Counted from the stretch's first letter, positions 8,444-37,201 are shown. The stretch: DNA of 64,000 nt from an uncultured Candidatus Binatia bacterium (GCA_965215605.1 OZ244070.1:3616001-3680000), one strand, 5' to 3'. Made by a program: numbers and translations. Notes: generated by a model from the letters alone, not told the origin.

Positions 8444-9172
8444 GTGGAACGGCTTCAGAGGATCATCGCGCACGCGGGGCTGGCTTCGCGGCGCCAGGCG
8501 GAGCAGTGGATCGTCGAAGGCCGCATCACGGTCAACGGGCGCCGCGTCCGGGAGCTGGGCACCCGCGCCGACGCCGGGCGCGACCGCATCTGTGTGGACG
8601 GAAGGGTGCTGCGGCCGGCGGCGTCCAAGGCCTATCTCGCGTTCCACAAGCCGGCCGGCGTCATCACCACCATGCGGGACACCGAAGGGCGGCCCTCGGT
8701 GGCGGATTACCTCAAGGCCGGCGGACACCCGTCCGGGGTGGTGCCGGCAGGGCGCCTGGACTACGCTACCTCGGGCCTCCTGCTGCTGACCAATGACGGC
8801 GATCTGGCCTACCGCCTGACCCATCCCCGCTACGGCGTCCCCAAGACCTACGAGGTCAAGTTGAGCGGCATGCCCTCGGCGGCGCAACTGGAGCGTTTGC
8901 GGCGGGGGGTCGGGCTGGAGGACGGGGTCACGGCGCCGGCGGAGGTGAGCGTGTCGCGGCGCCTGAAGCAGAAGGTGTGGCTCAAGGTCGAGCTCCGCGA
9001 GGGCCGCTACCGGGAAATCCGCAGGATGGTGGAAACCGTGGGGCACACGGTGGAGCGGCTGGTGAGAAGCCGCTTCGGCCCCATCGCCCTCGGACCACTG
9101 GGCCGGGGCGAGATACGGCCCCTGACCGAGGGAGAGGTAGCCCGCCTCAAGCGGGCGGTGAACCTCTCGTAG
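8444..9172 (+). CDS. rluB: 23S rRNA pseudouridine synthase (RsuA/RluB family)
   Basis: S4 domain ERLQRIIAHAGLASRR; GRLDYATSGLLLLTNDG catalytic motif; position after scpB. Confidence 0.85.
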   Translation: MERLQRIIAHAGLASRRQAEQWIVEGRITVNGRRVRELGTRADAGRDRICVDGRVLRPAASKAYLAFHKPAGVITTMRDTEGRPSVADYLKAGGHPSGVVPAGRLDYATSGLLLLTNDGDLAYRLTHPRYGVPKTYEVKLSGMPSAAQLERLRRGVGLEDGVTAPAEVSVSRRLKQKVWLKVELREGRYREIRRMVETVGHTVERLVRSRFGPIALGPLGRGEIRPLTEGEVARLKRAVNLS

Positions 9173-9192: not shown

Positions 9193-9256
9193 GTGCGCGT
9201 GCGCCGCCATCGCCCGACACAGGTTCCAGTGCAAGGCATGGGGGAGAGAGCCGTCC

Positions 9257-9805
9257 ATGGCAACTCACGATCATCACCACCATCACGGCGGCGGCCGTTA
9301 CCGCTTCTGTCCCCGCTGCGGCGGCGCGCTGGCGCCGCGCATCGTCAAGAGCAACGAACCCGAGCGCCTGGTCTGCGAGAACTGCTCCTTCATCTTCTAC
9401 CAGGACCCCAAGGTCGTGGCCGGCACCATCTGCATGCTCGACGGCGGCGTGGTGCTGCTTCGCCGGGGCATCGAGCCGGCCATGGGCAAATGGGTGTTTC
9501 CGGGCGGTTACGTGGACCGGGGCGAAAGCACCACCGAGGCGGCGGTCCGCGAGACTCTGGAAGAAAGCTGCCTGGAGGTGGCGACCCGGTCGCTTCTGGG
9601 CGTGTATTCCTATCCCAAGTCCTCCAACATCATCATCGTCTACGTGGCGGAGGTCGTCGGCGGGACCCTGGCGGCCGGGGACGAGAGCACCGAGGCCGGG
9701 ACCTTCCCGCTGTCACGGATTCCCTGGGACGAGCTGGCTTTTCCCAGCACCGCCGAGGCCCTCGATGACTTCGGCCGTCTTTATGGGGAGGGGAAAATGT
9801 GTTAG
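9257..9805 (+). CDS. NUDIX hydrolase with N-terminal zinc ribbon
   Basis: CPRCG...CENC ribbon; Nudix box GGYVDRGESTTEAAVRETLEE; His-rich N-terminus. Confidence 0.9.
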   Translation: MATHDHHHHHGGGRYRFCPRCGGALAPRIVKSNEPERLVCENCSFIFYQDPKVVAGTICMLDGGVVLLRRGIEPAMGKWVFPGGYVDRGESTTEAAVRETLEESCLEVATRSLLGVYSYPKSSNIIIVYVAEVVGGTLAAGDESTEAGTFPLSRIPWDELAFPSTAEALDDFGRLYGEGKMC

Positions 9806-9848
9806 AGAAGGCCGGGTTTGCTGAACATTCCCGAAAGGAGATTCATTG

Positions 9849-10307
9849 ATGTCGATGCCAGATGTGGGGGACAAGGCCCCCGAGTTCAGCCTGCCGGTGT
9901 CCCGGGACGAGAAGGTGTCCCTGAGCGACTACGCGGGCAAGAAGAACGTCGTGTTGGCGTTCTATCCGCTGGATTTCACCGGCGGCTGAAAGCAGGAACT
10001 AACCAACTTCGAGGCTGACAAGGCCAGCTTCGAAGCCAAGGACGCTCAGGTTCTGAGCGTGAGTGTCGATTCGGTGTTCGCCCACAAGGCGTTTGCGGAG
10101 CAGATGGGCGGGATCAGCTTCCCGATGTTGTCGGATTTCTTTCCTCAGGGGGAGGTCTGCAAGCAGTACGACTGCCTGCGTCCCCAGGGCTTTCCCAAGA
10201 GAGCCGTCTTCATTATCGACAAGCAGGGGACCGTGCGGTATGCCAAGCTCTACGAGGGCGGCATCCCGGAGAACCAGGACCTGCTGGCCGAGCTCGACAA
10301 GCTCTAG
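9849..10307 (+). CDS. Selenocysteine-containing peroxiredoxin (AhpE-like AhpC/TSA family), 152 aa, UGA (Sec) at codon 47
   Basis: AAGGAG RBS then ATG 9849: [15 protein letters not shown]...[16 protein letters not shown](9987-9989)-KQELTNFE..., continuing in frame into ORF 10059..10307 ([24 protein letters not shown]). TGA is at the peroxidatic Cys position of PxxxTxxC. Confidence 0.88.
10007..10035 (+). promoter_or_regulatory. Candidate bacterial SECIS element
   Basis: CTTCGAGGCTG-ACAAGGC-CAGCTTCGAAG: 11-bp stem (one G:U) with G-containing loop, 17 nt after the in-frame UGA. Confidence 0.65.
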
Positions 10308-10334
10308 CCTCTCCGCGAGAGAGACGAAGGCTCG

Positions 10335-10370
10335 AACAGGGGGCGGCGCATGCGTCGTCCCCTGTTTCTG
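10335..10370 (+). terminator. Intrinsic terminator-like hairpin between the convergent prx and ygfZ-like genes
   Basis: AACAGGGGGCGGCGC/GCGTCGTCCCCTGTT stem followed by T-rich bases. Confidence 0.65.
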
Positions 10371-10436
10371 TCTGCGTCGGGGAAACCCGCCTTGAGGGCC
10401 GGCGGCCGTCTCGGGAATAGCCGGTGCGGCCGCGAT

Positions 10437-11498
10437 TCAGAAGGGCAGGGCGTGGACGACGGCAGGAAGCGCCGTGCCCCCGTGCCCGATGGCGAGGGTG
10501 CTGCCCGGCTCGACGAAGTCCCGGTGGACATAGCCGAGGGCGACGGGGCAGCGGCACCGGGGCGAGGCCGCGGCGCTGGTGACCCGGCCGATGCCCCGGT
10601 CGTCGTCGAGCAGCGGGTCGTCCCGGTCGGGCACGGTGCCGCCCTGAACCTTCAGGCCCACCAGCTTCCGGTTCACGCGGCCCCGGGAGTGAATGCGTTC
10701 CACCGTCTCCTGTCCCAGATAGCACCCCTTGGTGAAGCTGACGGCGCCGTCCAGGCCGGTTTCCAGCAGGAGCGTCTCGGCGTCCATGTCGACGCCGTAC
10801 CTGGGGATGCCCGCCTCGATTCTCAAGGTCTCCCGGGCGTCGAGCCCGATCCACGGGACGGCCCGGGCCGGCGCCAGCGCCGCCACGGCCGGCAGGCGGT
10901 CCCGGGAGGCTGCCAGGTCGAAGCCGGGTTCCCCGGTGTGGGTGGCCCGGATGACCCGGATCCGGCCGCCGGGGCCGTCGAACTCCCCGTGGCACAGGTC
11001 ATCGGCGGGCAACGAAGCACTCCCCAGGAGATCGGACAGCGCCGCCTTCGCCCGCGGCCCCTGGATGGATATCATCGCAAGCTCCGCGGAGAGGTCGGTG
11101 ATCTCCACCTCGTCGGCGATCAGGTAGCGGTTCAGGTGCTCCAGCACCCCCGGCGCCAGAGGTTCGCTCACGTCCAGGAGAAACGCGTCGGCGGTGCGGA
11201 AGACTCTCATGTCCGCCAGGATCTTGCCCTGGATGTTCAGCACCGCGGCCGGTGCGCCCTCGCCGTCCCGCAGGGCCTTGACGTCGTTGGACACCATGCC
11301 CTGGAGCCACTCGACGCTGTCCGGCCCGGCCACGGAGAGAAGGGTCCGGTCCGCCAGGTCGAGCCACCCTGCTCCGGAACGCACGGCTTCGTACTCGGCG
11401 CCCGGGTTGCCGAAGCGCGACGGCAGCCTCCACCCCTCGCGCTCGAGAAAGACCGCGCGGTTCTCTTTGTGGAAGTCGTCGAGGGGCGATATCTTCAT
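10437..11498 (-). CDS. ygfZ: YgfZ/GcvT-like folate-binding protein
   Basis: KGCYLGQE YgfZ signature; GcvT-like N-terminus SPLDDFH and RIEAGIP; start MKISP at 11498. Confidence 0.82.
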   Translation of the reverse strand: MKISPLDDFHKENRAVFLEREGWRLPSRFGNPGAEYEAVRSGAGWLDLADRTLLSVAGPDSVEWLQGMVSNDVKALRDGEGAPAAVLNIQGKILADMRVFRTADAFLLDVSEPLAPGVLEHLNRYLIADEVEITDLSAELAMISIQGPRAKAALSDLLGSASLPADDLCHGEFDGPGGRIRVIRATHTGEPGFDLAASRDRLPAVAALAPARAVPWIGLDARETLRIEAGIPRYGVDMDAETLLLETGLDGAVSFTKGCYLGQETVERIHSRGRVNRKLVGLKVQGGTVPDRDDPLLDDDRGIGRVTSAAASPRCRCPVALGYVHRDFVEPGSTLAIGHGGTALPAVVHALPF

Positions 11499-11564
11499 GG
11501 CGGGATTACAGTAACCGGGTTGGCGCCGCATGGCAATGGCTCCAACACAGGCGGGAGACGAACC

Positions 11565-12512
11565 ATGAGCAAGGCTTCAAGGGACCTGGATCTTCGCAAG
11601 CTCGAGGTCTTCTACTGGGTCGCGGAACTCCGCAGCTTCTCGCTGGCGGCGGAGCACTTCGCCCTCAGGCAGCCCACGGTGACCGCCCATGTCCAGTCCC
11701 TGGAGCGGCAACTGGGCTGCAAGCTCTTCCGGCGCTCCGGCGGCCGGTTCGATCTGACGTCCACGGGGTGGATGCTGTACGAACAGGCGGGCGCTGTGCT
11801 GAAGCTGAAGAACCAGGCGCTGGCGGCGCTGGACCGCATCCAGGGGAAAGTGGAGGGGGAACTGCGGATAGGAGGCAGCAACGTTCCCGGCGAGTACATC
11901 CTGCCGGGGGTGCTGGGGAACTTCGTGGCGCGGTTCCCGGATGTGCGGCCGGTGCTTCGCATCGGCGACTCCGCGGCCATCGTGGCCGCCATCCTCGACG
12001 GGACGCTGGAGCTGGGGTTCACCGGGTTCCGGACCCGCGACGAGCGATTGAGGTATCGCAAGACGTGGCAGGACGAGATGATCGTGGCGGTGCCCGCGAA
12101 CCATCGTTGGGCGGGCTTGAAGCAGGTGCCGCTCCAGGAACTCGGCAAGGAGCCGTTCATATCCCGGGAGGGCGGCTCCGGCACCCTGCGTTCGTTCCTG
12201 CAACTCGTGGCCAAGCGCGGGGAGGAGCCCGAACGGTTTCTCAAGGTGGGGATGGAGCTCGGCAGCACGGCGGCGGTCAAGGAGGCGCTCATGGAGGGAT
12301 TCGGCTTTTCCGTCCTTTCCCGCGCCGCCATCAGGCGGGAGGTCCAGCAGGGGCTCATCAAGGAGCTCCGCATCAAGGACCTGGACCTGGTGCGGCCCTT
12401 CTACCAAGTGACCCACCGCGGGCGCCCGCTGGCGCTGGTGTCGCGCGCGTTCGTGCAGTTCCTGGCCCGGGCGCCGCGCACCCGTCTATGGGAGCCCGTC
12501 CCTCATAGCTGA
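11565..12512 (+). CDS. LysR-family transcriptional regulator (CysL-like/selenium-metabolism-associated type)
   Basis: HTH LEVFYWVAELRSFSLAAEHFALRQPTVTAHVQSLE; effector domain GGSNVPGEYILP, REGGSGT, ELGSTAAVKEAL; true start 11565 inside the 720-aa ORF. Confidence 0.9.
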   Translation: MSKASRDLDLRKLEVFYWVAELRSFSLAAEHFALRQPTVTAHVQSLERQLGCKLFRRSGGRFDLTSTGWMLYEQAGAVLKLKNQALAALDRIQGKVEGELRIGGSNVPGEYILPGVLGNFVARFPDVRPVLRIGDSAAIVAAILDGTLELGFTGFRTRDERLRYRKTWQDEMIVAVPANHRWAGLKQVPLQELGKEPFISREGGSGTLRSFLQLVAKRGEEPERFLKVGMELGSTAAVKEALMEGFGFSVLSRAAIRREVQQGLIKELRIKDLDLVRPFYQVTHRGRPLALVSRAFVQFLARAPRTRLWEPVPHS

Positions 12513-12548
12513 GGTCTATTTGACATATAGTTCTCCTTGATATCCAAT
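12505..12548 (+). promoter_or_regulatory. Sigma70 promoter of the ABC operon overlapped by LysR-type T-N11-A boxes
   Basis: TTGACA (12520-25)-N17-TCCAAT; ATAG-N7-CTAT (12505-19) and ATAG-N7-TGAT (12527-41). Confidence 0.65.
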
Positions 12549-12576
12549 CAATCGAAACTGCTTTCGGGAGGTAAGG

Positions 12577-13440
12577 ATGAGAGGAAAACCGGTTTGGCTG
12601 TCTGGTCTGTTGGCGTTGGTGGTCTGGATGGTGTGGGGGGTCGCGGCCGCGGACACGTTGCGGGTCTCCGCGATTCCGGACGAGGACCCCCAGGAATTGT
12701 TGCGCAAGTACAAGCCCTTTACCGACTACATCACCAGAGAGGTGGGGCTGAAGGTCAAGTTCGTTCCGGTGGTGGACTATGCGGCCACCGTGGAGGGTTT
12801 GGCCGCCGACCGGCTGGATATCGTCTGGTACGGCGGCTTCACCTCGGTTCAGGCCGTCCAGCGGGCCAAGGGGGCCACGAGGCTGGCCATGCGCAAGGAG
12901 GACGCGAGCTTCAAGAGCGTCTTCGTCGCCCGTACCGATTCCGGCATCAAGAACCTGGCGGATCTCAAGGGCAAGACCTTCGCCTTCGGCAGCGTGAGCT
13001 CCACCTCCGGCCACCTCATGCCGCGTCACTTCCTCAGGGCGGCGGGGGTCGATCCGGAGCGGGACTTCAAGAAGTTCGGCTTCAGCGGCGCCCATGATGC
13101 CACCGCCGCCTGGGTAGCGGCCGGGCGGGTGGACGCCGGCGCGCTCAACTTCCTGGTGTGGAACAAGCTGGTGGACAAGGCAAAGGTCGACACGAAGAAG
13201 ACGAACGTGTTTTGGACCACGCCGCCCTACGTGGACTACGTCTGGGTGGCCCGTGGCGGGGTGCCCGAGGAAGTCCGGGAGAAGTTCAGGCAGGCGCTGC
13301 TGAAGCTCGACTACACGAACCCCGAGCACCGGGAGATCATGGATCTTCAACGTACACGGAAGTTCATTGCGGCCAAGGACTCGGATTGGGACGGCATCCG
13401 GAAGGCGGCCATCGCCGCCGGCATGCTCAAGGTCAATTGA
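12577..13440 (+). CDS. PhnD-like ABC substrate-binding protein, resembles the putative selenate-binding clade
   Basis: Signal peptide; LRVSAIPDEDPQEL, DYAATVE, WYGGFT, FGSVSSTSGHLMP, FSGAHDATA, WTTPPYVDYVW. Confidence 0.85.
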   Translation: MRGKPVWLSGLLALVVWMVWGVAAADTLRVSAIPDEDPQELLRKYKPFTDYITREVGLKVKFVPVVDYAATVEGLAADRLDIVWYGGFTSVQAVQRAKGATRLAMRKEDASFKSVFVARTDSGIKNLADLKGKTFAFGSVSSTSGHLMPRHFLRAAGVDPERDFKKFGFSGAHDATAAWVAAGRVDAGALNFLVWNKLVDKAKVDTKKTNVFWTTPPYVDYVWVARGGVPEEVREKFRQALLKLDYTNPEHREIMDLQRTRKFIAAKDSDWDGIRKAAIAAGMLKVN

Positions 13441-14249
13441 CGAGCTCGCCGCAATATCGCCTGGAGCGCGTCCGCAAGGTGTTCGGGCGTGGGCAGGTGG
13501 CGCTGGAAGGGTTCGACCTGCAAGTGGCCCAGGGCGAGCGGGTGGCCCTCATCGGCCCCAGCGGCGCCGGCAAGACCACGCTCTTCCGCATGCTCAACTG
13601 CACCATCCGTCCCACCGCCGGACGCCTGAGCATCGGCGGGCAGGAGGTGGCGGAGTTGTACGGCCGGCGGCTGCGGGAGATGCGCCGCCGCATCGGCACC
13701 ATCTACCAGCAGCACAACCTGGTGCCGCGGCTCCGGGTGGTCCACAATGTCCTCTCCGGCCGGTTGGGAAGCTGGTCCCTGTTGGGCTCCCTGGCCTCGC
13801 TGGCGCGGCCCGCGGGGCTGGAGACCGCCCACCGGGCCCTGACCGACGTCGGCATCGGCGAGAAGCTCTTCAGCCGCACCGATGAGCTCTCCGGGGGCCA
13901 GCAGCAGCGGGTGGCCATCGCGCGGGTGTTGATGCAGGACCCCGACGTGATCCTGGCCGACGAGCCGGTGTCGTCGGTGGACCCCTCCCTGGCCGAGACC
14001 ATCATCAGGCTTCTCATCGCCATCAGCGACCATACCGGCAAGACGCTGCTGGTCAACCTTCACAGCACCGACCTGGCGCTGTCGTATTTTCCCAGGGTCA
14101 TCGGCATGAAGGCGGGGGTCAAGCTGTTCGATACCGCCGCTGCCCGGGTGACCCCGGAGCTTCTGCAGGAGCTTTACTCCGGCCATGTCCCGGAAAACGG
14201 CGCCGGCGAATCCTCGGGGGAACCGGAGCCGCGCCGCATCGCGGTCTAG
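13437..14249 (+). CDS. PhnC-like ABC ATP-binding protein
   Basis: TTG start overlapping the SBP stop; [32 protein letters not shown]. Confidence 0.92.
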
Positions 14250-14259
14250 CCCGGCGTCC

Positions 14260-15105
14260 ATGAGCCTCCCATCCAGGACGCTGGGCTCGCGGTCGATTTT
14301 TCCCTACCTGTTCGGCGGGCTGTTCCTCTTCCTGGTGGCGGATAGTTGGCGCCGCGCCGAGGTAAACCCCGGGATCTTCTTCGACGCCCAGGGCCGGGAG
14401 CACCTGTGGCGGTTCGTCACCGGCATGTACCCGCCGGAGCTCTCTTGGGACTTCCTGGAGCTCATGATCCGGCCCACCATGGAGACCATCCAGATCTCGG
14501 TGATGGGCACCCTCATCGCCGTGCTCATCGGCTTTCCGCTGGGACTGCTGGCCACCAGCACCTTCAGCTTCCAGGGCATCCTCCACGAGTCCGAGTACCG
14601 TGGCAGCGGCGTGAGACACGGCCTCAAGGTCTGTCTCTACGGTCTGGCGCGGGGCCTGTTGAGCCTCTTCCGCTGCATCCCGGAGTTCGTGTGGGCCTTC
14701 ATGTTCGTGCGCGCGGTGGGCTTGGGGCCGTTTCCCGGCGTGCTGGCCATCGGGGTGGCCTACGGCGGGATGCTGGGCAAGGTCTACTCCGAGATATTCG
14801 AGTCGGTGAACACCCGGCCGCTGGAGGCCATCCAGTCTACCGGCGCCGGGCGGCTGCAGATCTTCTTCTACGGCTGGTTCCCGCAGGTGCTGCCCAACAT
14901 CGCCTCGTACACGATGTACCGGTGGGAATGCGCGGTGCGGACCTCGGCCATCCTGGGCCTGGTGGGAGCAGGCGGCATCGGCCAGCAGATCGAGATCTCC
15001 ATCCGGATGTTCAACTTCCACGAGGTCACCACCCTGCTGCTGATCCTGTTCGCGCTGGTGGCGGGGGCGGACTACGTGAGCGCCAGGGTGCGGTCGTTGC
15101 TATGA
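14260..15105 (+). CDS. PhnE/PtxC-family ABC permease 1
   Basis: ETIQISVMGT, RCIPEFVWA, GLGPFPGVLA, YRWECAVRTSAILGLVGAGGIG. Confidence 0.9.
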   Translation: MSLPSRTLGSRSIFPYLFGGLFLFLVADSWRRAEVNPGIFFDAQGREHLWRFVTGMYPPELSWDFLELMIRPTMETIQISVMGTLIAVLIGFPLGLLATSTFSFQGILHESEYRGSGVRHGLKVCLYGLARGLLSLFRCIPEFVWAFMFVRAVGLGPFPGVLAIGVAYGGMLGKVYSEIFESVNTRPLEAIQSTGAGRLQIFFYGWFPQVLPNIASYTMYRWECAVRTSAILGLVGAGGIGQQIEISIRMFNFHEVTTLLLILFALVAGADYVSARVRSLL

Positions 15106-15977
15106 ATCAGGCGGTCACCACCACCGACGAGCTGGCCGCCCTCAAGGCCGGCGCCCGCGAACGGTCGCGATGGTCCACCTGTGTCCTGTTGGGGTTGCTG
15201 GCGGCGCTCTTCGCCTGGAGCTACCAGGGGTCGGAGATCGACCTCGGCATGCTCTTCAGCGCCGACGGCGGCGGCGCCATCGTCGAGTACGTCGAGCGGC
15301 TGTTTCCCCCGGACCTCTCGGGCAAGGTGGTGGCGGATGCCGTGGCCGGCGCCTGGGAGACCCTGGCCATCTCGTTGATCGGCACCCTGCTGTCGGTGCT
15401 CATCGCACTGTCTCTGGCCTTCTTCGGGTCGCGCAACCTCGTGTACGCCGGGCTGCTCTACGAGATGGAACCCCGGCGCCATCGAATGCTGCTGCGGCGC
15501 CTTCCGTACCTCACGGCCAAGGCCATCCTCAACTTCCTGCGCACCATCCCGGAGATGCTGTGGGCGCTGGTGTTCGTGTTCCTGGTAGGGCTCGGCCCCT
15601 TTCCCGGCGTGCTGGCACTGGGAGTGCATACCGGCGGCGTGCTGGGAAAGCTGTTCGCGGAAGTGCTGGAAGACGTGGACCTGCAGCCCGTCGAGTCGCT
15701 GCAGTCCACCGGCGCCGGCAAGATCCAGATCCTCTTCTACGCCATCCTGCCCCAGGTGCTGCCCCAGTTCATCTCCTACACGCTGTACCGCTGGGAGGTG
15801 AACATCCGCGTGGCCGCGGTGCTGGGCTTCGTGGGCGCCGGCGGGCTGGGCCAGCGCATCCACATCGCCTTGAGCCTGTTCCTCGAGCAACAGCTCCTGA
15901 CGCTGCTCCTGGCCCTCTACGTGCTGGTGACGGGGGTGGACTACCTGAGCGCCTACCTGCGGCGCCGGGTGGTGTGA
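15102..15977 (+). CDS. PhnE/PtxC-family ABC permease 2
   Basis: ATGA overlap with permease 1; RTIPEMLWA, YRWEVNIRVAAVLGFVGAGGLG. Confidence 0.9.
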   Translation: MNQAVTTTDELAALKAGARERSRWSTCVLLGLLAALFAWSYQGSEIDLGMLFSADGGGAIVEYVERLFPPDLSGKVVADAVAGAWETLAISLIGTLLSVLIALSLAFFGSRNLVYAGLLYEMEPRRHRMLLRRLPYLTAKAILNFLRTIPEMLWALVFVFLVGLGPFPGVLALGVHTGGVLGKLFAEVLEDVDLQPVESLQSTGAGKIQILFYAILPQVLPQFISYTLYRWEVNIRVAAVLGFVGAGGLGQRIHIALSLFLEQQLLTLLLALYVLVTGVDYLSAYLRRRVV

Positions 15978-16023
15978 CGCCCTGGCCTCGGGCGGTGCTT
16001 CCAAAGGCCGTGGCAAGTCGCTT

Positions 16024-17058
16024 TCAGGGCCGTACCACTACCTTCAGGGCTTCCTTGGCCATCATCGACCGCAGCGCTTTCTCAAGGTCCTGGAGCGGCA
16101 TCTCGGCGGACAGCAGGGGCCGCGGGTCCAGCACCTTCCGGGTCAGCATCTCCACGGCTCGCGATACCGTGGCCGGACGATGATGGTAGGCGCCCATGAC
16201 GGTGAGCTCGTTGTAGTGGACCGAAGCGGTGTCCAGCGGAATCGTCGTCCCGGGCGCGCAGCCGCCGAAGAGATTGACCACCCCTCCGGGGCGCACGCAG
16301 GCCACCGCATCCTGCCACACCGCGGGCACCCCGGTGGCGTCGATGGCGCAATCGAAGCCGTCGCCGTCTCGTGAATGAGGCCGAAGACGCTTCGCCTCCC
16401 CGCCGCCCCGAGCCACTTCCACGGTATCCTGCGCGCCCAGGGTGCGTGCTACATCGAGCCGCCGCGGATTGGGGTCCGCGGTCGCGACGCGATGGCCTTG
16501 GGCCGCCAGCGCGGCCGTCAGCAACAGCCCGATGGGACCGGCTCCGTAGACCAGCACCTCAGCGCCGTCGCCGAGCCCGCAGGCGTCGATCCCGTGAACG
16601 ACGCAAGCCAGCGGCTCCACCAGTGCGGCCACTTCGTAGGGGAGGTCCGGGTCGAGGCGATGGGTGCTGGCTTCGACGAACCGCCGGGGAATCCGGATGT
16701 ACTCGGCGAATGCGCCGTTGAGATACTCGAGGTCCCGGCACAGGTTCTCACGCCCCGCCACGCAGTATGGGCAGAGACCGCAAGGCGCCGAGTTGGCCAC
16801 CACCACCCGGTCCCCCAGCTCGTACCCGCTCACCCCCGCGCCCAACGCCTCCACCGAACCCGCGAACTCGTGCCCGAAAGGCGTCGGCACCCGCAGCATC
16901 CGCGGATGCCCGCCCCGCCGGAACACCTTGACATCCGTCCCACAGGTGGTAGCCGCCCGGACCCGCACCAGCAACTCCCCCTCGCCGGGCGCAGGCACGG
17001 GTTCTTCCCGCAATTCGATGTGCGCGGGGCCGAGCAGATATATGACCCGGTGTTTCAT
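16024..17058 (-). CDS. Zinc-dependent medium-chain alcohol/polyol dehydrogenase
   Basis: CGTD, GHEFAG, structural Zn CGLCPYC...C, GAGPIG. Confidence 0.92.
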   Translation of the reverse strand: MKHRVIYLLGPAHIELREEPVPAPGEGELLVRVRAATTCGTDVKVFRRGGHPRMLRVPTPFGHEFAGSVEALGAGVSGYELGDRVVVANSAPCGLCPYCVAGRENLCRDLEYLNGAFAEYIRIPRRFVEASTHRLDPDLPYEVAALVEPLACVVHGIDACGLGDGAEVLVYGAGPIGLLLTAALAAQGHRVATADPNPRRLDVARTLGAQDTVEVARGGGEAKRLRPHSRDGDGFDCAIDATGVPAVWQDAVACVRPGGVVNLFGGCAPGTTIPLDTASVHYNELTVMGAYHHRPATVSRAVEMLTRKVLDPRPLLSAEMPLQDLEKALRSMMAKEALKVVVRP

Positions 17059-20891: not shown

Positions 20892-22130
20892 CTAGCAGCA
20901 CGGCATCGGATTCTCGATCAGGTTGTAGACGCTGTCGAAGTTGACCTCGTTGATGGTTTTCTGGACCTTGTAGAAACGCGGCGGCTCGTTGTCCAGGAAC
21001 ACCATGATGGCGGTCTCGATTGGGGGGCAGCCCGGCTTCACGCAGGGGACCTCCTTGATGGTGATGGGGGTCGTGGACGGGAACTCCAGCGCCTGCCGCA
21101 CCCAGATGCGGATCTGGTCCAGCGTGAAGGACGACACGTCGCGATAAATGTCCAGCTCACCGTCCGCCGCCGCCTCATCCTCCGAGCGCAGACAGGTCGT
21201 GAGGCCGCACTGCAACTCGTCTCCGTCCAGGTCCCGGCCGATGAACACCAGCCGGTTGAGGCGCTCCTCGTCCTCTTCCCATTCGCGTCCCAGACGCCCC
21301 TCGAACATGCTGTGGACTCCGTGAAACACGAATTGGTGGGAGTCGCCGTGCATGTTGAGGATGCCCTTCATGCGCAGGATGTCGGCCCCTTTCTCGGCCA
21401 GCACGCCCCGGAACCAGTGGCTCAGGCGCGTTTTGTCGAGGTCGCCGGGCTGGACGAACGAAACGGTCTGGACCGAGGGCTGGTGCTCGTGGTGATGGCT
21501 GTTGGCCACCGCCCGGCGCTTGGCCTCCAGGTCGAAGGCCCGCATCTCCAGCAGCTCGCCGATGTCCACGTCCGCGTTCCGGGTGGGGGTGACGCGGGCC
21601 GTGGGGTTCAGCTCCTCCAGCCTGACGGCGAGGTCGTCGGCCTCTTCCGGCGTGATGAGGTCGGTCTTGTTGAGCAGGATGGCGTCCGCGCAGGCTACCT
21701 GTTCCCGGGCCTCGTGCTGGGCCGCGAGCTGCCCGTCGATGTGCATCCCGTCCACCACGGTCACTACCGCCTGAAGCTCGAAATCGAGACGGATACGTTC
21801 GTCCAGCAACAAGGTCTGGACGATGACGGTGGGGTCCGCCAGGCCCGAGGTCTCCACCACCAGGTAGTCGAAGGTGTCGCGCCGTTCCAAGAGCTGCAGC
21901 AGCACCCGCAGCAGGTCGCCCTGGACCGTGCAGCAGATGCAGCCGTTGTTCATCTGGAAGATCTCTTCGTCCGAGGCGACGATGAGATGGTGGTCGATGC
22001 CCACCTCGCCGAACTCGTTGATGACCACGGCGATGCGGTGGCCGTGAGGCGCGGTGAGGATGCGGTTCAGAAGGGTGGTCTTGCCCGCTCCGAGAAAGCC
22101 CGTGAGGATGACGACGGGTATCTTGGCCAT
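20892..22130 (-). CDS. CobW/COG0523 metallochaperone GTPase with extra C-terminal Cys-rich domain
   Basis: GFLGAGKTT, INEFGE, GCICC, ETSGLADP, NKTD, His-rich linker, CobW_C (RMKG...LVFIG); extension with CVKPGCPP and terminal PCC. Confidence 0.92.
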   Translation of the reverse strand: MAKIPVVILTGFLGAGKTTLLNRILTAPHGHRIAVVINEFGEVGIDHHLIVASDEEIFQMNNGCICCTVQGDLLRVLLQLLERRDTFDYLVVETSGLADPTVIVQTLLLDERIRLDFELQAVVTVVDGMHIDGQLAAQHEAREQVACADAILLNKTDLITPEEADDLAVRLEELNPTARVTPTRNADVDIGELLEMRAFDLEAKRRAVANSHHHEHQPSVQTVSFVQPGDLDKTRLSHWFRGVLAEKGADILRMKGILNMHGDSHQFVFHGVHSMFEGRLGREWEEDEERLNRLVFIGRDLDGDELQCGLTTCLRSEDEAAADGELDIYRDVSSFTLDQIRIWVRQALEFPSTTPITIKEVPCVKPGCPPIETAIMVFLDNEPPRFYKVQKTINEVNFDSVYNLIENPMPCC

Positions 22131-22214
22131 GATCCCTCTTGGCAGGTCCCGTGGGCAAGGGGCGCCGTTGCCGGGATGCTTCGGCAATGCCCTCCGGGTC
22201 CGGTGTCCGGCAGG

Positions 22215-24498
22215 CTACTTCCGGTCACGCTCCTCGAGCGCCCAGAACACCCGTTCCGGGGTCAGCGGCAGTTCCCGGATGCGCGACTTGATGGCGTCCG
22301 CCACCGCGTTGCCGATGGCTGCGGGGGTCGGCGCCAAGCCCGGCTCCCCCAGCCCCTTGGCGCCGTAGGGCCCTTCGGGTTCGGCGCACTCGACGATGAT
22401 GGGAATGATCTCGGGCAAATCCAGCGACGTCACCAGGTGGTAGTCCAGGAACGAGGGGTTCCGCACCTTGCCGTTCTCGTCGATGACCAGGTTCTCGTGC
22501 AGCGCGGAGCCGATGCCCTGGGCCACGCCGCCTTCGATCTGGGCCGCGCAGTTGAGCGGGTTGATGGCCTTGCCCACGTCGTGGGCCGCGGACAGCCGGC
22601 GCAGCCGGACCCGGCCGGTCTCCTCGTCCACCGAAGCCTCCGCGGCCTGGGTGGCGTACATGTAGAACGCCGACGCGTGGTCGCTGTGACCCGTTTCCAG
22701 GTCCAGGTCCTTGCCGATCTCGTAGGTGTAGGAGGCGTCGCCCCTGAGCACCGCGTCGGCGCCCAGCTTGCGCCGGATCATCTCCCCGAAGGTCAGGGCG
22801 ATCTCGTCATGGTCCTTCAGGTGCACCTTGCCGTCGGACACCACCAGCTCTTCCTGCTTCCCTTCCAGCATCGGGCCGGCCATTTCCAGGAGCTGCTCGC
22901 GGGCGTGGATGGCCGCGCCCCGCACCGCGTTGCCCATGTGATAGGTGCTGCGGCTTGAGGTGGTGGAGGCGTCGAACGGGATGACGTCGGTGTCCAACGG
23001 CGCCACCTGGACCTGCTCGATGGGCACCTTCAGCTCTTCCGCCGCCACCTGTGACAGGATGGTGTTGCATCCCTGGCCGATCTCCACGGTGCCGGCCAGC
23101 ACCGTGACCTGGCCGTCGGTATCCACCAGCACGCCGGCGTTGGAAGTGGTGGGCGACCGCGTGGGCTTGGAGATGCACGCCAGCCCGCGTCCGACCCCCG
23201 CGGGTTTTGGCTTGTCCCAGTCGATGGCGGCGGCCGCCTTGGTCAGTGTCTCGGTGAGGCCCACGTTGTGCAGTTGCTCGCCCCAGTAGGCCAGGTCGCC
23301 GTCCACGAAGACGTTCTTCAGACGGAACTCCAGCGGGTCCATGGCCAGCCGGCGGGCCAGCTCGTCCATGTGCTGCTCGGTGGCCCAAGCGCCCTGGGGG
23401 ATGCCGTAGCCGCGGAAGGCCCCGGCCACCGGCTTGTTGGTGTACACGGCGTAACCGTCCACGTGGACGTGGGGGATGCGGTAGGGGCCGGGCGAGGGGA
23501 GGCTGCCCCGGATGCACACCGTGGGACTCTTCTCCGAATAGGCGCCGCCGCCCCAGTAAAGGGTCATGTGCCGGGCCATCAGGGTGCCGTCGTTCCTGAC
23601 CCCGCTCTTGACATGCACCGTGGCCTCGTGGCGCACCAGCGTCGAGATGAAGGTTTCCTCCCGGTTGAACTTCACCCGCACCGGCCGCCCGTTCGTGTGA
23701 AACGCCAGCCCCATGGCGATGGGCTCCAGCTTGAGGCCGCCCTTGGAGCCGAAGCCGCCGCCCTGGAGCGGGTTGATGAGGCGGATCTTCTCCTGCGGCA
23801 GGCCCAGGGCTTCGGCCACCTCGGTCAGCGCCCGGAATGGCGCGTCGTTGGCCACCCAGACGGTGACCCGTCCGGTCTCGGGGTCCACTTGGGCGTGGGC
23901 CGAATGGGGCTCCATGGCGGCGTGCTGGATCACCGGCACGTAGTAGCTTTCCTCGAGCACCAGGTCCGACTGCCGGAACCCCTCGGCGGTATCCCCGGTG
24001 CGCAGCTTGAAATGCTCGCACACGTTGGGCATGGGGGCGCCGACGATGAAAGGGGCCTTGCGATAGTCCTCGAACTCTTCGTGGATAGCCACGGCGCCGG
24101 GCTGGCAGGCCTCCTCGGGGGTGAAGTAGGCGGGCAGATCCTCGTATTCCACCTCGATGAGCTTCAGCGCCTCCTGGGCCGTGTCCTCATCCACCGCGGC
24201 CACCGCGGCCACCGGCTCGCCGATGTAGCGTACCTTGCCCTGGGCCAGGAAGGGCTTGTCCTTGATGGATTCGCCATGGGTCCAGGGAACGTCGGCCCCG
24301 GAAATCGCGCATACCACGCCCGGATGCCGCCGCGCCTTCTCCAGGTCGAGCCTGACGATGCGCGCGTGGGGCCGGGTGCTGAACAGCACCTTGCCGTGTA
24401 GCATGTCCGGCAGCACCAGATCGTACCCGTAGATGGCCGTGCCCGTGACCTTTTCGTCCACGTCGACGCGGGTAACCGGATGGCCGACGAGCCTGAGC

Positions 24499-24506
<8 letters not shown>
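22215..24506 (-). CDS. Xanthine oxidase-family molybdopterin-binding subunit
   Basis: [37 protein letters not shown]. Confidence 0.95.
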
Positions 24507-24996
<490 letters not shown>

Positions 24997-25021
24997 GAAT
25001 TCTCAGGCTCCTTCTCTGCTC

Positions 25022-25939
25022 CTATGCGTATCGCCGGTCCCGCCGGCTGGTCCACGGCGCCGGGCCGTTTCCCGCCGCGGCGTTCAGCAGCGCCCGCTTG
25101 GTATTCACCCGCACCATGGCCCGGCGGTAGTCCGCGGACGAACGCACGTCGCTGATGGGGCTGCACTCCTCGGCCGCCTTCCGGCCGGCCTCCTCCGCCA
25201 GCTCCTCGGTCAACACCTGTCCGAGGAGGACGGCTTCGGCCCCGGAGGCGCGCATGGGAGTGGGGGAGACCGCTCCGAGGGCGATGGCCACGGATTCGCA
25301 GCGGCGGCCGGACTCCGCCAGCGTGAGGGTCACGGCCACTCCGATGTAGGCCAGGTCCATCATGTCCCGGGGCGAGAACTTGATGTATTCGCCCAACAGC
25401 CGCGGGTGCTGGGGCGGGATCAGGAGCTCGGTGAGGATCTCCCCGGGCTCGGCGACGGTCTGACCGGGGCCGCGGAAGAAATCCTTGAGATCCACGACCC
25501 GTTCGCCGCCGGCGCCGGCCAGCCTGGCCCTGGCGTCCAGCGCCAGCAGCGCCGGGGCCACGTCCGCGGACGGCGTGGCGTTGGCCATGTTGCCGCCGAT
25601 GGTGGCGCGGTTGCGGATCTGGATGGAGCCCACCTCGGCGGCGCTCTGGGCCAGGAACGGGTAACGCCCGACCACGAGCGGGGAGATCTCCACCTCCCGC
25701 AGGGTCGTCAGGGCGCCGATGGTGATGCTGCCGTCGGCCTCCTCACGAATGCCCGACAGGGACGGGATGCGCTTGAGGTCCACCACGTATTTCGGCACCA
25801 GCCCCTTTTCCTTCATGGCGATGACCAGGTCGGTGCCGCCGGCCAGAAAATAGCCTCCGGCGCCGCCCTCCAGCATGATCCGGGTGGCCTCCGCCAAGCT
25901 CGTGGGCTGATGAAATTCCAGGGGTTCGGTGCGCTTCAT
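25022..25939 (-). CDS. Xanthine oxidase-family FAD-binding subunit
   Basis: LAGGTDL, QIRNRATIGGN, SDVRSSADYR. Confidence 0.95.
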   Translation of the reverse strand: MKRTEPLEFHQPTSLAEATRIMLEGGAGGYFLAGGTDLVIAMKEKGLVPKYVVDLKRIPSLSGIREEADGSITIGALTTLREVEISPLVVGRYPFLAQSAAEVGSIQIRNRATIGGNMANATPSADVAPALLALDARARLAGAGGERVVDLKDFFRGPGQTVAEPGEILTELLIPPQHPRLLGEYIKFSPRDMMDLAYIGVAVTLTLAESGRRCESVAIALGAVSPTPMRASGAEAVLLGQVLTEELAEEAGRKAAEECSPISDVRSSADYRRAMVRVNTKRALLNAAAGNGPAPWTSRRDRRYA

Positions 25940-32964: not shown

Positions 32965-33831
32965 TCAGGCGCCCTGAAGGTTGGCGAGTATCCGCCGGGT
33001 GGAGAGGGAGCGGTTGAGAGTGTAGAAGTGGATGCCCGGCGCCCCCCCCTGGAGCAGCGATCGGCACTGTCGCGTGGCGTGCTCGACCCCCACCTCGATT
33101 ACAGCGTCGGCATCGCCGCTCACTGCTTCCAGCTTCGCCAGCAGGGGCGCTGGAATCGTGGCGCCGCACATCTGGGTGAAGCGTTTGATCTGGGCGGTGT
33201 TGGTGACGGGCATGATGCCGGGGATGATGGGGGCGTTGATTCCCGCCACCCCGGCGCGCGATACGAAGTCGAAATAGTCGCACTCGTCGAAGAAGAGCTG
33301 CGTCACGACGAAGTCGGCGCCGGCGTCGACCTTGCGCTTGAGGTTGCCCAGGTCCTGCTCCGCGCTGGATGCCTCCGGGTGGACCTCGGGGTACCCGGCG
33401 CCTCCGATGCAGAAGTCCTTCCGTTGCCGAATGAAAGCGATGAGCTCGTTGGCGTGAGAGAATCCTTGGGGATGGGGGACGAACTCCGTGTCGCCCCGGG
33501 GAGGATCCCCCCGCAGCGCCATGATGTTCTCGATGCCGGCCTCTTCGTATTCGTCCAGGAGTTGGCCGATCTCGTCGCGGCTGTGGCCCAGGCAGGTGAG
33601 ATGGGCCATGGCCTCGATGCCGGCCTCGCGCTTGATTCTCTGAGTGATCGCCACCGTCTTTTCGCGGGTGCTGCCGCCGGCCCCGTAGGTGACCGATACG
33701 AAGGCCGGCCCCAGCGCCTTGAGGTTGGCCACGGTCTCGAACAGGGCGTCGATGCCGCGGTCATCCTTGGGCGGGAAGAACTCGAAGGAGAAGAGCGGAC
33801 GTTCCTGGCCGAAGCGTTCCTTGATCTTCAT
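32965..33831 (-). CDS. metF: 5,10-methylenetetrahydrofolate reductase
   Basis: SFEFFPPK, VTYGAGGS, AHLTC, ALRGDPP, TQLFFD, HFYTLN. Confidence 0.96.
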   Translation of the reverse strand: MKIKERFGQERPLFSFEFFPPKDDRGIDALFETVANLKALGPAFVSVTYGAGGSTREKTVAITQRIKREAGIEAMAHLTCLGHSRDEIGQLLDEYEEAGIENIMALRGDPPRGDTEFVPHPQGFSHANELIAFIRQRKDFCIGGAGYPEVHPEASSAEQDLGNLKRKVDAGADFVVTQLFFDECDYFDFVSRAGVAGINAPIIPGIMPVTNTAQIKRFTQMCGATIPAPLLAKLEAVSGDADAVIEVGVEHATRQCRSLLQGGAPGIHFYTLNRSLSTRRILANLQGA

Positions 33832-36050: not shown

Positions 36051-36172
36051 GATGATGCCTTTGAGCCGAGTCTCCGGCCGGAGCCGGTGACTCGGTCCGT
36101 TAAGTTTCGAAACAGGTTGCGCGGGCTGGTGGGGTAGGGGAGAGACATCGGGGTGTCTCGGACCCGAAGCCC

Positions 36173-37201
36173 TCAAAAACCGTACAGCGCCCGGGGATTG
36201 TCGTCCAGGATCTTGGCTACCGACGCGGGACTGACCTTGCCGTCGTCCTTGAGCTTCTCCAGGGCCAGGATCTCGCTGGAGGTATCGTTGTGGCCGTAGT
36301 CGGTGCCGATGATGATGTTGTCGTCGCCGGTGTATTCCAGCACGTAGTCGAGGTCGTCGTCTGTCTGGCAGGCCACGAAGATGCGGCTGTCGCTGAGAAG
36401 GCTGCGGGACAGCTCGATGCCGCGCTTCTGCCGGAAACGCTTGGCGAGGTCGTGGAACACGTAGGGGACCCACTGCGCGCTGACTTCGATGAAGCCGATG
36501 CGCAACCTCGGGAACCGCTCCGGGACACGGTCCCAGATCACCGAGTGGAACGACCCCACCACCGCGAGCTTGAACTTGTTGAAACCGGGTTCGTCGAAGA
36601 AGAGGTCGTGCTGGGTGAAGCTGCCGGTGGCCGAGTGCACGCACAGGGGCACGTTGGCGTCGCTCAGGGCCTCGTAAAGCGGGGTGAAGCAGGGGTCGCT
36701 GAGCCGCCGGTCGCCGATGAGCCCGGGCACGTACACGCCGCAGGCGCCGTGCTGGAGCACGAAGTCCAACTCCTTGAGCGCCTCGTCCATGCTCCGCAAC
36801 GGCAGGATTGCGGCCCACCGCAGGCGGTCCTGGCCCGCCTTCCAGATGTCGCACAGCCAGCGGTTGTAGCTCTTGAACAGCGCCATCTCCACCTCGGGCT
36901 TGTCGGTGACCGGCCGCAGGAAGATGGTGGGGTAGAGCACCTGCATCGCCACGCCCATCTCGTCCATGTGCCGCAGGCGTGACGCGATATCCGACATCTC
37001 ACGGGATTCCTCGGGCGTGTCCTCCCCTACGTTGTCGGACTTGGCAAACAGCCTTCCGTCCACCAGCCAGTACTCGCCGCTGTTTCCCGCGGCGTCGCTG
37101 GAAGTCACGACCCGGGGGCGTAATGCCTTCTCCGCCCCCTCCATGTATTCCCAGGTCCGGTTGGTTTCCAGCACGTGTGCGTCTGCGTCGATGACCGCCA
37201 T
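36173..37201 (-). CDS. Amidohydrolase_2 family protein (ACMSD/LigW-like)
   Basis: IDADAH, YNRWLCD, LCVH, FIE, GTDYGH; GGAGG RBS. Confidence 0.88.
   Translation of the reverse strand: MAVIDADAHVLETNRTWEYMEGAEKALRPRVVTSSDAAGNSGEYWLVDGRLFAKSDNVGEDTPEESREMSDIASRLRHMDEMGVAMQVLYPTIFLRPVTDKPEVEMALFKSYNRWLCDIWKAGQDRLRWAAILPLRSMDEALKELDFVLQHGACGVYVPGLIGDRRLSDPCFTPLYEALSDANVPLCVHSATGSFTQHDLFFDEPGFNKFKLAVVGSFHSVIWDRVPERFPRLRIGFIEVSAQWVPYVFHDLAKRFRQKRGIELSRSLLSDSRIFVACQTDDDLDYVLEYTGDDNIIIGTDYGHNDTSSEILALEKLKDDGKVSPASVAKILDDNPRALYGF

Follow-up and report, generated by a model that had tools for sequence, protein, structure and literature searches.

The locus described here raises the question of what is imported by a four-gene ATP-binding cassette (ABC) transporter of the PhnD/C/E/E type, which is encoded directly downstream of a LysR-type regulator in an uncultured Candidatus Binatia bacterium, and whether a selenoprotein encoded nearby belongs to the same unit. 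The window, by which we mean the whole stretch of 64,000 nucleotides (nt) that was analysed (GCA_965215605.1 OZ244070.1:3616001-3680000), contains seven genes in the region 9849-15977: prx for a peroxiredoxin, ygfZ, lysR, the gene for the substrate-binding protein (SBP), and phnC-, phnE- and phnE-like genes. A preliminary description of this DNA had read them as one module, in which a selenate-like importer is controlled by a selenium-responsive LysR and clustered with a selenoprotein that it supplies. The genes themselves, that is the UGA-recoded prx, ygfZ divergent from lysR, and the four transporter genes, were found as described, and the motifs noted by eye (SAIPDE..EL, WTTPPYVDYVW and GGSNVPGEYILP) are present in the translations. 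The selenium context of the importer and the regulator stood, but selenate as the substrate and the membership of prx and ygfZ were weakened. We propose, with a probability of roughly 0.6, that the regulator, a LysR_Se protein, and the four-gene importer form a selenium-oxyanion uptake unit under selenium-status control. This reading of the regulator-importer pair is well supported by its context, but unproven.

Family membership was judged by whole-protein hidden Markov model scores against the curated NCBIfam or Pfam cut-offs. The LysR protein scored 260.2 bits with NF040786, the model of the selenium metabolism-associated LysR group (cut-off 250), which was the best of 48 LysR models and was followed by YeiE with 164.8 bits; it is also the single NF040786 match above the cut-off in the genome. 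Its assignment to this group in the preliminary description therefore holds. According to passages of Lin et al. (2015), who predicted LysR_Se and equated it with HrsM, the regulator is only present in SelD-containing, mostly selenocysteine (Sec)-decoding organisms (PMC5322559). The Binatia genome, a 4.06 Mb assembly that is 97% complete, belongs to such an organism: the genome search proposed earlier revealed selD (with an in-frame TGA), selB and selA clustered approximately 1.6 Mb from the window, as well as a tRNA-Sec. SelU gave no match in the genome, and its selenium use appears to be the Sec trait. The window LysR also shares the conserved GxSxxPGEYILP stretch with LysR_Se/HrsM, and parts of two papers describe HrsM as a selenium-dependent repressor and an orthologue of LysR_Se (PMC11097638, PMC5322559).

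The SBP scored 337.8 bits with TIGR04553 (cut-off 250) and 188.2 bits with the PhnD model TIGR03431, which is below the cut-off of the latter (261.1), and it is both the single TIGR04553 match and the only PhnD-family match in the genome, where the search recovered it with 337.7 bits. The fit to the putative selenate-binding clade that had been suggested by eye was thus borne out. TIGR04553, "putative selenate ABC transporter substrate-binding protein", is a hypothetical equivalog, and relatives of the SBP already carry this name at NCBI. We take the name to be based on genomic association with selD or other selenium genes, and such an association is found here, as lysR_Se is adjacent and the clade as a whole is linked to selD. 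The accession TIGR04553 was in no paper found by our literature search, which also retrieved no selenium-binding data for members of the family, while the phrase "selenate ABC transporter" is present in parts of the literature. The transporter operon begins 64 nt past lysR, and the overlapping gene ends suggest translational coupling of the four genes.

To follow this context across lineages, three sets of loci were compared. A close set of 21 loci (L021-L041) was counted as one observation, since the housekeeping flanks are syntenic along with the whole block. The first distant set of 80 loci (L054-L133), which was obtained from an alignment of nine SBPs (A1), covers Binatia-like, Rokubacteria/Methylomirabilota, Tectomicrobia, Acidobacteriota-labelled, Anaeromyxobacter, Aeromonas and Pseudomonas loci and many Betaproteobacteria. 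Here, the fetched flank contained selD in 22 loci and selA or selB in 3 more. Unbiased clustering of the neighbouring open reading frames (ORFs) identified SelD as the only widely recurring non-transporter family (15 loci by this stricter method), and in four Rokubacteria-type loci the order is LysR>SelD>SBP>PhnC>PhnE>PhnE, with LysR proteins scoring 290-315 bits on NF040786. Where the locus showed no sel gene, selD was present elsewhere in 45 of 47 genomes; the two misses are metagenome-assembled genomes of 3.6 and 1.6 Mb. The second distant set, again 80 loci, was seeded by ten cluster representatives (A6) and covers Dehalococcoidia, Bacillaceae, Clostridia, Cyanobacteria and Actinomycetota. 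It has selD in the flank of 10 loci and a LysR gene beside the transporter in 6. Two of these LysR proteins pass NF040786 (254.6 and 280.5 bits), and the remaining four reach 200-234 bits, counted over the aligned fragment alone, with NF040786 as their sole family match at E<=1e-55. LysR_Se-type genes hence adjoin the transporter in several lineages.

Co-occurrence was also determined independently of gene position. Among 300 scored genomes of one proteobacterial class (G445 was unscored and G493, which is selD-positive, is flagged as unpublished), all 8 genomes with a TIGR04553 match above the cut-off are among the 55 with such a match to selD (one-sided Fisher P 8e-7). In 251 genomes of Cyanobacteriia, TIGR04553 was found in 93, selD (E<=1e-40) in 143 and both in 83, so that selD is present in 83/93 transporter-positive but 60/158 transporter-negative genomes (10 with the transporter only, 98 with neither; P 1e-16). 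When the threshold was relaxed for the 10 transporter-only genomes, selD was recovered in 6 of them, all of 1.6-1.7 Mb, bringing the count to 89/93. The conserved linkage that had been asked for is therefore seen in several phyla for the transporter with selD and with LysR_Se-type genes, whereas prx and ygfZ accompany them in one syntenic lineage only.

Several observations were made alongside these comparisons. In G362, G419, G468, G494 and most of the cyanobacterial matches, selD lies in an open frame of 720-900 amino acids, suggesting a fusion of SelD to another domain; in G362 this long gene is located 3 kb from the SBP gene. A PhnD-like SBP that fails TIGR04553 (151.6 bits) is encoded 1.1 kb from selD at G245:C5:75218-77991, and the selenium link may extend past the TIGR04553 cut-off. 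Betaproteobacterial SECIS_3 elements were found 1-10 kb from the transporter (L108:416-508 and 8936-8994, L096:16841-16899, L110:6010-6068), in L108 together with a tRNA-Sec, pointing to Sec-dependent formate dehydrogenase genes in the vicinity. Loci of the Anaeromyxobacter type have, between phnC and phnE of the transporter operon, an ORF that matches only the effector-binding half of LysR_Se (L073:997-1602, L075:12581-13234 on the minus strand, L087:7492-8091); the L073 protein scored 137 bits over NF040786 positions 92-294, and those of L075 and L087 were seen by tblastn only. Two Rokubacteria-type loci (L063, L065) contain a small cysteine-rich gene ending in ...GGGCCGGGCACH approximately 160 nt upstream of lysR_Se. 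Its product looks like an FmdB-type zinc-ribbon protein, a family that is listed among predicted selenoproteins in parts of reviews.

The spacer between lysR and the SBP gene contains the dyad CTATTTGACATATAG (12516-12530), a T-N11-A element with the arms CTAT-N7-ATAG and a perfect TTGACA (-35) hexamer within it. It is followed after 7 nt by the -10-like box TGATATCC (12538-12545) and preceded by the half-sites TCTATGG (12485-12491) and CATAG (12504-12508) in the 3' end of lysR. The dyad is invariant in 21/21 close relatives, while neighbouring positions of the spacer vary, in agreement with the LysR-type box that had been reported upstream of the SBP gene. The more distant loci L055-L059 and L062 keep (C/G)ATTTGAC(A/T)TATAG, one half-site is degenerate in L037 and L054, both of which lack LysR, and the Rokubacteria-type selD-SBP spacers read GATTTGA ... 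CCCTATAGC ... CTCTAYAC. The dyad is thus a candidate local operator, through which LysR_Se would act on the transporter promoter. The CTAT-N7-ATAG motif occurs at four sites in the 4.06 Mb genome, the others being a vapBC-like operator and two apparently coding sites; the region upstream of selA contains no such motif, and a genome-wide search for it gave no wider regulon. Passages of Lin et al. propose that LysR_Se controls Sec-decoding genes (PMC5322559), and the word "ABC" does not occur in the text of that paper. HrsM is known to repress cysteine-isoform hydrogenase operons in Methanococcus, whereas the dyad of the window is found only at the transporter promoter. The only other intergenic copy in the Binatia genome (C1:1278009) is the palindrome CTATCAGTTTGATAG upstream of an antitoxin-like and a PIN-domain-like ORF, which by eye resemble vapBC.

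The nature of the substrate can be approached through the binding pocket. The closest solved structures are those of PhnD1 from Synechococcus MITS9220 (7S6G/7ZCK, E 4e-61, 210 bits) and Prochlorococcus (5LQ5/5LQ8, E 2e-54), with PtxB, E. coli PhnD, ArrX and AioX being progressively more distant. PhnD1 is approximately 45% identical to the SBP (alignment midline count) and is encoded in the same PhnDCE(E) type of operon, which, like that of the window, has no phosphite or phosphonate catabolic partner genes. As described in parts of the PhnD1 study, the ligand residues are D11, Y44, T65, S123-S126, H156, N174, D203 and Y204, and the protein binds phosphite at about 0.7-3 micromolar, phosphate at 7-88 micromolar and methylphosphonate more weakly (PMC10284923). 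In parts of a second study, the selectivity is attributed to a tyrosine that caps the ligand so closely that no substituent larger than a hydrogen fits (PMC5700983). Residues D35, Y68, T89, S141-S142-T143-S144, H173, N191, D220 and Y221 of the SBP, mapped by hand on the alignment, are identical to the named PhnD1 pocket residues, and most of them are invariant in the nine-SBP alignment. The pocket is therefore predicted from its residues to accommodate a trigonal XO3 anion whose fourth substituent is very small. Selenite, like phosphite, is trigonal with three oxygens and a near-empty fourth position, whereas selenate is tetrahedral like phosphate. Due to the phosphite-type pocket, in which tetrahedral phosphate is bound an order of magnitude more weakly, selenite seems likelier than selenate as the substrate, judged by shape, and the "selenate-like" importer of the preliminary description is the less plausible version.

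The similarity to PhnD1 is not complete. The clade of the window has a histidine (His146) after STSG and a glutamate (Glu108), where PhnD1 has arginine and isoleucine, respectively, lysR_Se precedes the window operon, and the ligands measured for PhnD1 are phosphorus compounds, with no selenium ligand in the parts of the reports that cover binding. PtxB of Pseudomonas stutzeri belongs to the same SBP superfamily, but is a much weaker match than PhnD1 (E 5e-38, 134 bits), and no ptxD-like dehydrogenase is encoded in the window operon. The ptxABCDE operon presumably also ends with a LysR-type gene, ptxE, whereas the window regulator is a member of the selenium LysR subfamily. The capping-tyrosine mechanism described in parts of the second study also applies to PtxB (PMC5700983).

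The relationship between PhnD1 and TIGR04553 was examined using a close relative of 7S6G encoded at L346 and the cyanobacterial sample as proxies for characterised PhnD1. The L346 protein scored 324.8 bits, cyanobacterial PhnD1-type proteins in seven loci scored 342-366 bits, and those of 92 cyanobacterial genomes, including genomes of 1.6-1.9 Mb, scored 298-376 bits, with a partial 93rd at 273.6. Names of cluster members of ten borderline representatives carry no cyanobacterial label. Nine Cyanobacteriia genomes of 1.6-1.9 Mb (G553, G571, G605, G633, G646, G657, G668, G726, G751) encode a PhnD1-type SBP with 298-324 bits as well as a selD domain, the latter inside an ORF of approximately 723-734 amino acids (127-150 bits). 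As these small genomes carry both, the PhnD1 transporter co-occurs with selenophosphate synthetase.

These comparisons allow the selenium-oxyanion unit to be weighed, and a number of points speak against it. No experiment ties any TIGR04553 member to selenium, the name of the family having been given from context alone, and this "selenate" family includes, or borders immediately on, proteins for which phosphorus oxyanions are the only known ligands, the nearest characterised relatives of the SBP being those that bind phosphite (sub-micromolar to micromolar), phosphate and methylphosphonate, as given in parts of the PhnD1 study (PMC10284923). Among 27 cluster representatives, the TIGR04553 scores form a continuum between 387 and 204 bits, with no gap at the cut-off, so that the boundary of the family is soft. 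The regulator is only 10 bits above the NF040786 cut-off, and the close relatives L037 and L054 retain the transporter without LysR. Binding of LysR_Se to the dyad is an inference, and a simple promoter scan called no promoter there. No sel gene was present in the flank of 55/80 loci in the first and 70/80 loci in the second distant set. In addition, the phyletic tests ignore shared ancestry, and the cyanobacterial transporter-negatives were kept at the stricter threshold, which makes their 60 selD-positive genomes a floor.

Alternatively, the transporter might be a medium- or high-affinity importer of phosphite, phosphate or methylphosphonate. Its selenium context would then be indirect and could stem, for instance, from the use of ATP and release of phosphate by SelD, or from a shared oxyanion-stress regulation. 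PhnD1 (7S6G, 5LQ5) provides the closest structures with identical pocket residues, PhnD1-type proteins of cyanobacteria fall inside TIGR04553, the PhnE and PhnC models of phosphonate systems are the best matches for the permeases and the ATPase, and phosphorus ligands are the only ones that have been measured, selenite being mentioned in neither binding paper (PMC10284923, PMC5700983). Clustering with characterised phosphite or phosphonate binders, which had been named as a ground for abandoning the selenium reading if accompanied by preferential binding, is hence in part observed, as far as the clustering half goes. On the other hand, there is no phosphite or phosphonate catabolic gene in the operon, and PhnJ (PF06007) had no match anywhere in the 97%-complete genome, other phosphonatases being outside this search; the absence of C-P lyase noted earlier for the window thus extends genome-wide. 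The regulator is LysR_Se rather than part of a Pho-type arrangement, and three independent samples each gave a strong association with selD. Furthermore, strains with PhnD1 cannot grow on phosphite or methylphosphonate, and the authors consider in parts of their paper that the binding might be fortuitous (PMC10284923). Overall, we regard a phosphorus importer as unlikely, but phosphite or phosphate transport still competes with the selenium reading.

Within the selenium-oxyanion unit that we favour, the SBP, the ATPase and the two permeases would scavenge a small selenium oxyanion, most likely selenite. LysR_Se, presumably through an effector that reflects the cellular selenium status, would bind the CTAT-N7-ATAG dyad over the -35 hexamer plus the upstream half-sites and set the expression of the importer. 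The position of the dyad over the -35 box and the function of HrsM as a selenium-dependent repressor suggest that the importer is repressed when selenium is adequate; by analogy to HrsM, repression at sufficient selenium is the probable direction. Selenium taken up in this way would supply SelD and the Sec machinery encoded 1.6 Mb away, and through them all selenoproteins, including the neighbouring Sec-peroxiredoxin.

A different type of control element was found in Rhodocyclaceae-type Betaproteobacteria, where a conserved leader RNA of approximately 80 nt with three stems is located upstream of the TIGR04553 transporter (L096:9872-9952, L110:1416-1498, L121:168-248, L148:1972-2052 on the minus strand, L192:1998-2079 and L209:1998-2079, among others). 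It consists of P1 (GCGGU-CUGNG(A)U-ACCGC), a variable P2 hairpin, the sequence UGUAAGC, a 9-bp P3 with the loop ACAUCCG, and GGUUG, with a Shine-Dalgarno sequence approximately 15 nt later. RNAalifold, applied to 12 sequences aligned simply with MAFFT, recovered P1 and P3, and compensatory changes were seen at 6 pairs. On the alignment fitted to the model, which leans towards that model, 95.8% of the cells are paired as compared to 29-69% in slid controls, and 15 of 19 pairs are changed on both sides. No Rfam 15 family matched at gathering score in eight loci or at E<=10 for the L096 leader. A covariance model built from six sequences had 25 matches at E<=1 in 76 sources, 19 of them directly upstream of an SBP gene, and no match in the window; a Zoogloea genome has a second copy before TtrB-like and PhsA-like molybdo-reductase genes. 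Of 151 genomes from one family, 26 were matched, once each: 14 times before TIGR04553-like SBPs, 3 times before more distant PhnD-like SBPs, and 9 times before other genes, namely four TlpA/ResA-like genes (one directly after selA), TusA-like, EgtB, flavoprotein and acyl-CoA dehydrogenase genes and one of unknown type. An earlier scan with a loose pattern matched 118 stretches, of which the flanks of 80 were fetched. An SBP was downstream in 6 of the 80 (L096/L097 recurred in two of these and L102 in one), and L209 was a true copy before another operon; the other matches look like chance, and the scan was replaced by the covariance model. We consider the leader a candidate riboswitch of a sulfur/selenium regulon; no selenium-related riboswitch was found by literature search.

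The genes preceded by the leader also bear on the idea that the transporter takes up a sulfur oxyanion such as sulfite or thiosulfate, or chalcogen oxyanions in general, and that selenium use merely correlates with it. Sulfite is a trigonal XO3 anion as well, the leader precedes TusA-like, TlpA/ResA-like, EgtB, flavoprotein and PhsA/TtrB-like genes, and LysR_Se itself was proposed, in passages of Lin et al., to derive from sulfur-related LysR regulators (PMC5322559). However, the recurrent neighbour of the transporter is selD and no sulfur assimilation gene, carriers of the transporter have selD in 45/47, 8/8 and 89/93 cases, and one copy of the leader follows directly after selA (L273). We therefore consider a sulfur importer very unlikely.

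Two reviews (2022 and 2026) and an experimental study of 2024 state, in the parts that address uptake, that prokaryotes have no known uptake system specific for selenium (including PMC11097638), in line with the remark in the preliminary description that neither substrate nor regulator is experimentally defined. TIGR04553 and NF040786 are both already named in databases, and every part of the window belongs to a named family. Outside the supplements of the cited papers, our searches revealed no published account of the operator, the breadth of the LysR_Se-transporter pairing, the argument for selenite, or the presence of PhnD1-type proteins within TIGR04553 and their co-occurrence with selD. 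The result is modest for the window itself, and its weight lies in a sharpened, testable hypothesis: the locus and the comparisons draw attention to one transporter clade whose selenium context is consistent, and they add a candidate regulator-operator pair and, since the pocket of the SBP is a phosphite pocket, selenite as a chemical prediction. More tentatively, one might speculate that TIGR04553 ABC systems in general, including picocyanobacterial PhnD1, are dedicated high-affinity selenite importers that are tied to the selenium status by the LysR_Se operator and the leader RNA. CTAT-N7-ATAG and LysR_Se would then serve in the Binatia-type lineage and probably in Rokubacteria-type, Bacillaceae and Dehalococcoidia genomes, and the riboswitch-like leader would be a second, unrelated selenium device in Rhodocyclaceae-type Betaproteobacteria. 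The physiological role of PhnD1 is called unresolved by its own investigators in parts of their paper (PMC10284923), and selenite binding, if true, would bear on why picocyanobacteria keep a "phosphite" transporter that is useless for growth.

It remains to consider the two genes upstream of lysR. The prx product matches PF00578 with 133.8 bits, and its codon 47 is a TGA within FTGG-U-KQE. This TGA is conserved in 24/24 orthologous loci and the reading frame is conserved past it, as seen for selenoproteins with an in-frame UGA at the position of a redox-active cysteine. Starting 20 nt past the UGA, a hairpin resembling a selenocysteine insertion sequence (SECIS) is paired in 97% of the cells across 21 distinct sequences (slid controls 22-58%), with a few compensatory changes, one of which occurs via a synonymous codon change; taken alone, the single-sequence fold is unremarkable (z = -1.64), and the Rfam SECIS families gave no match at gathering score. 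The protein is below the cut-off of every NCBIfam peroxiredoxin equivalog and scored 80.5 bits on PrxU NF040737 (cut-off 270). Its T44-G-G-U47 corresponds to the TxxU motif shared with PrxU of Eubacterium acidaminophilum and other known Sec-peroxiredoxins, as given in parts of the literature, but the protein, with 152 amino acids, represents a different and shorter peroxiredoxin subgroup. The 15-bp hairpin downstream of prx (-53 kcal/mol, z -4.2) is followed by a U-rich run, and 0/200 shuffled sequences were as stable; prx probably shares a transcript with the nudix-like gene upstream of it, and this unit would end at its own terminator.

The ygfZ product contains the GCV_T domains PF01571 and PF08669, scored 81.1 bits on TIGR03317 (cut-off 49) and below the cut-offs of the GcvT equivalogs, and has KGCYLGQE, an instance of KGC[YF]xGQE, which we take to be the YgfZ/COG0354 motif. 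Its true start is likely M12 at 11498: alignments of YgfZ proteins from relatives begin at residue 11-13, and the alignment of 21 sequences revealed a TTGCCA-N17-TAC(T/G)GT block directly upstream of Met12, which was missed by a simple consensus scan. As no second YgfZ-type gene seems to be present in the genome, where one other GcvT-family paralog is 31% identical, ygfZ is probably a housekeeping gene. A function as methyl-selenium demethylase by analogy to DmdA (NF009133, 72.9 bits as compared to 410) was also considered and dropped, given the YgfZ domain and motif and the linkage in one lineage.

Inclusion of prx and ygfZ in the module, as suggested by the preliminary description, is weakened by their separate transcription units, with a terminator-like hairpin and a convergent and divergent layout, and by adjacency in one lineage. 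Nothing shows that the regulator controls the selenoprotein, as the dyad is present at no other selenium-related promoter in the genome. One might still envisage a wider module, in which the Sec-peroxiredoxin and YgfZ act together with LysR_Se and the transporter, for instance as a pair for selenite detoxification or selenium trafficking that is under LysR_Se control. The four are adjacent in at least 20 related loci and in the more distant L058, L059 and L062; at L055:2395-2778 and L057:5245-5604, ygfZ and lysR are separated by another peroxiredoxin gene, of the PrxQ type, whose peroxidatic codon is TGA (TPG-U-TKEAC), and a cysteine-type PrxQ is encoded directly upstream of the SBP at L056:224-568, L057:9350-9586 and L059:9359-9703. 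However, the rluB, nudix and dnaX flanks are syntenic in the same loci, so the linkage can reflect inheritance, and neither gene is found beside the transporter in the Rokubacteria-type, proteobacterial, Bacillaceae, Dehalococcoidia and cyanobacterial loci. In addition, prx has its own terminator-like hairpin and no dyad, it lies 6 kb away in L036, and the probable housekeeping role of ygfZ, whose sole other GcvT-family paralog is so distant, also argues against such a pair. We thus doubt the wider module, and prx and ygfZ are most likely neighbours by descent outside the regulated unit. The coordinates of all features are listed in Table 1.

Table 1. Features of the region in window coordinates
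Feature	Position	Strand	Basis
Sec AhpC/TSA peroxiredoxin, TxxU type, 152 aa	9849..10307	+	TGA=U translation, PF00578
UGA as Sec, peroxidatic position	9987..9989	+	translation, conservation, Sec machinery in genome
SECIS-like hairpin, 11 bp, 7-nt loop	10007..10035	+	fold, pairing across relatives
Terminator-like 15-bp hairpin, then UUUCUGUCU, between convergent prx and ygfZ	10334..10367	+	fold compared with shuffles
YgfZ/COG0354-type folate-binding protein	10437..11498	-	TIGR03317, PF01571+PF08669; longer ORF to 11531
ygfZ promoter-like block TTGCCA-N17-TAC(T/G)GT, ygfZ-lysR spacer	11508..11536	-	21-sequence alignment
LysR_Se regulator, 315 aa	11565..12512	+	NF040786
Putative operator/promoter region	12485..12545	+	conserved dyad, half-sites, -10-like box
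Periplasmic SBP, TIGR04553 clade (PhnD1-like), 287 aa	12577..13440	+	TIGR04553
ABC ATPase, PhnC-like; start overlaps SBP stop	13437..14249	+	TIGR02315 252.3 bits, below cut-off 266
Permease 1, PhnE family	14260..15105	+	TIGR01097 237.9 bits, cut-off 216.7
Permease 2, PhnE family; ATGA overlap with permease 1	15102..15977	+	TIGR01097 261.1 bits, cut-off 216.7

An Rfam scan found nothing in this region and only the signal recognition particle (SRP) RNA and three tRNAs in the whole window. A simple promoter and terminator scan of 9200-16200 called no more sites than in shuffled sequences and missed the conserved blocks, and it was not used. Elsewhere in the window, a CobW/ZigA-like GTPase and two xanthine-dehydrogenase-family molybdenum hydroxylase clusters are encoded on the minus strand (20895-22187, 22218-25939 and 33831-36854), all of which score below the cut-offs of the selenium-dependent hydroxylase models. 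The region itself is flanked upstream by the housekeeping genes scpAB and rluB and the nudix-like gene, and downstream by a convergent Zn-dehydrogenase gene, tRNA-Ser, the SRP RNA and dnaX.

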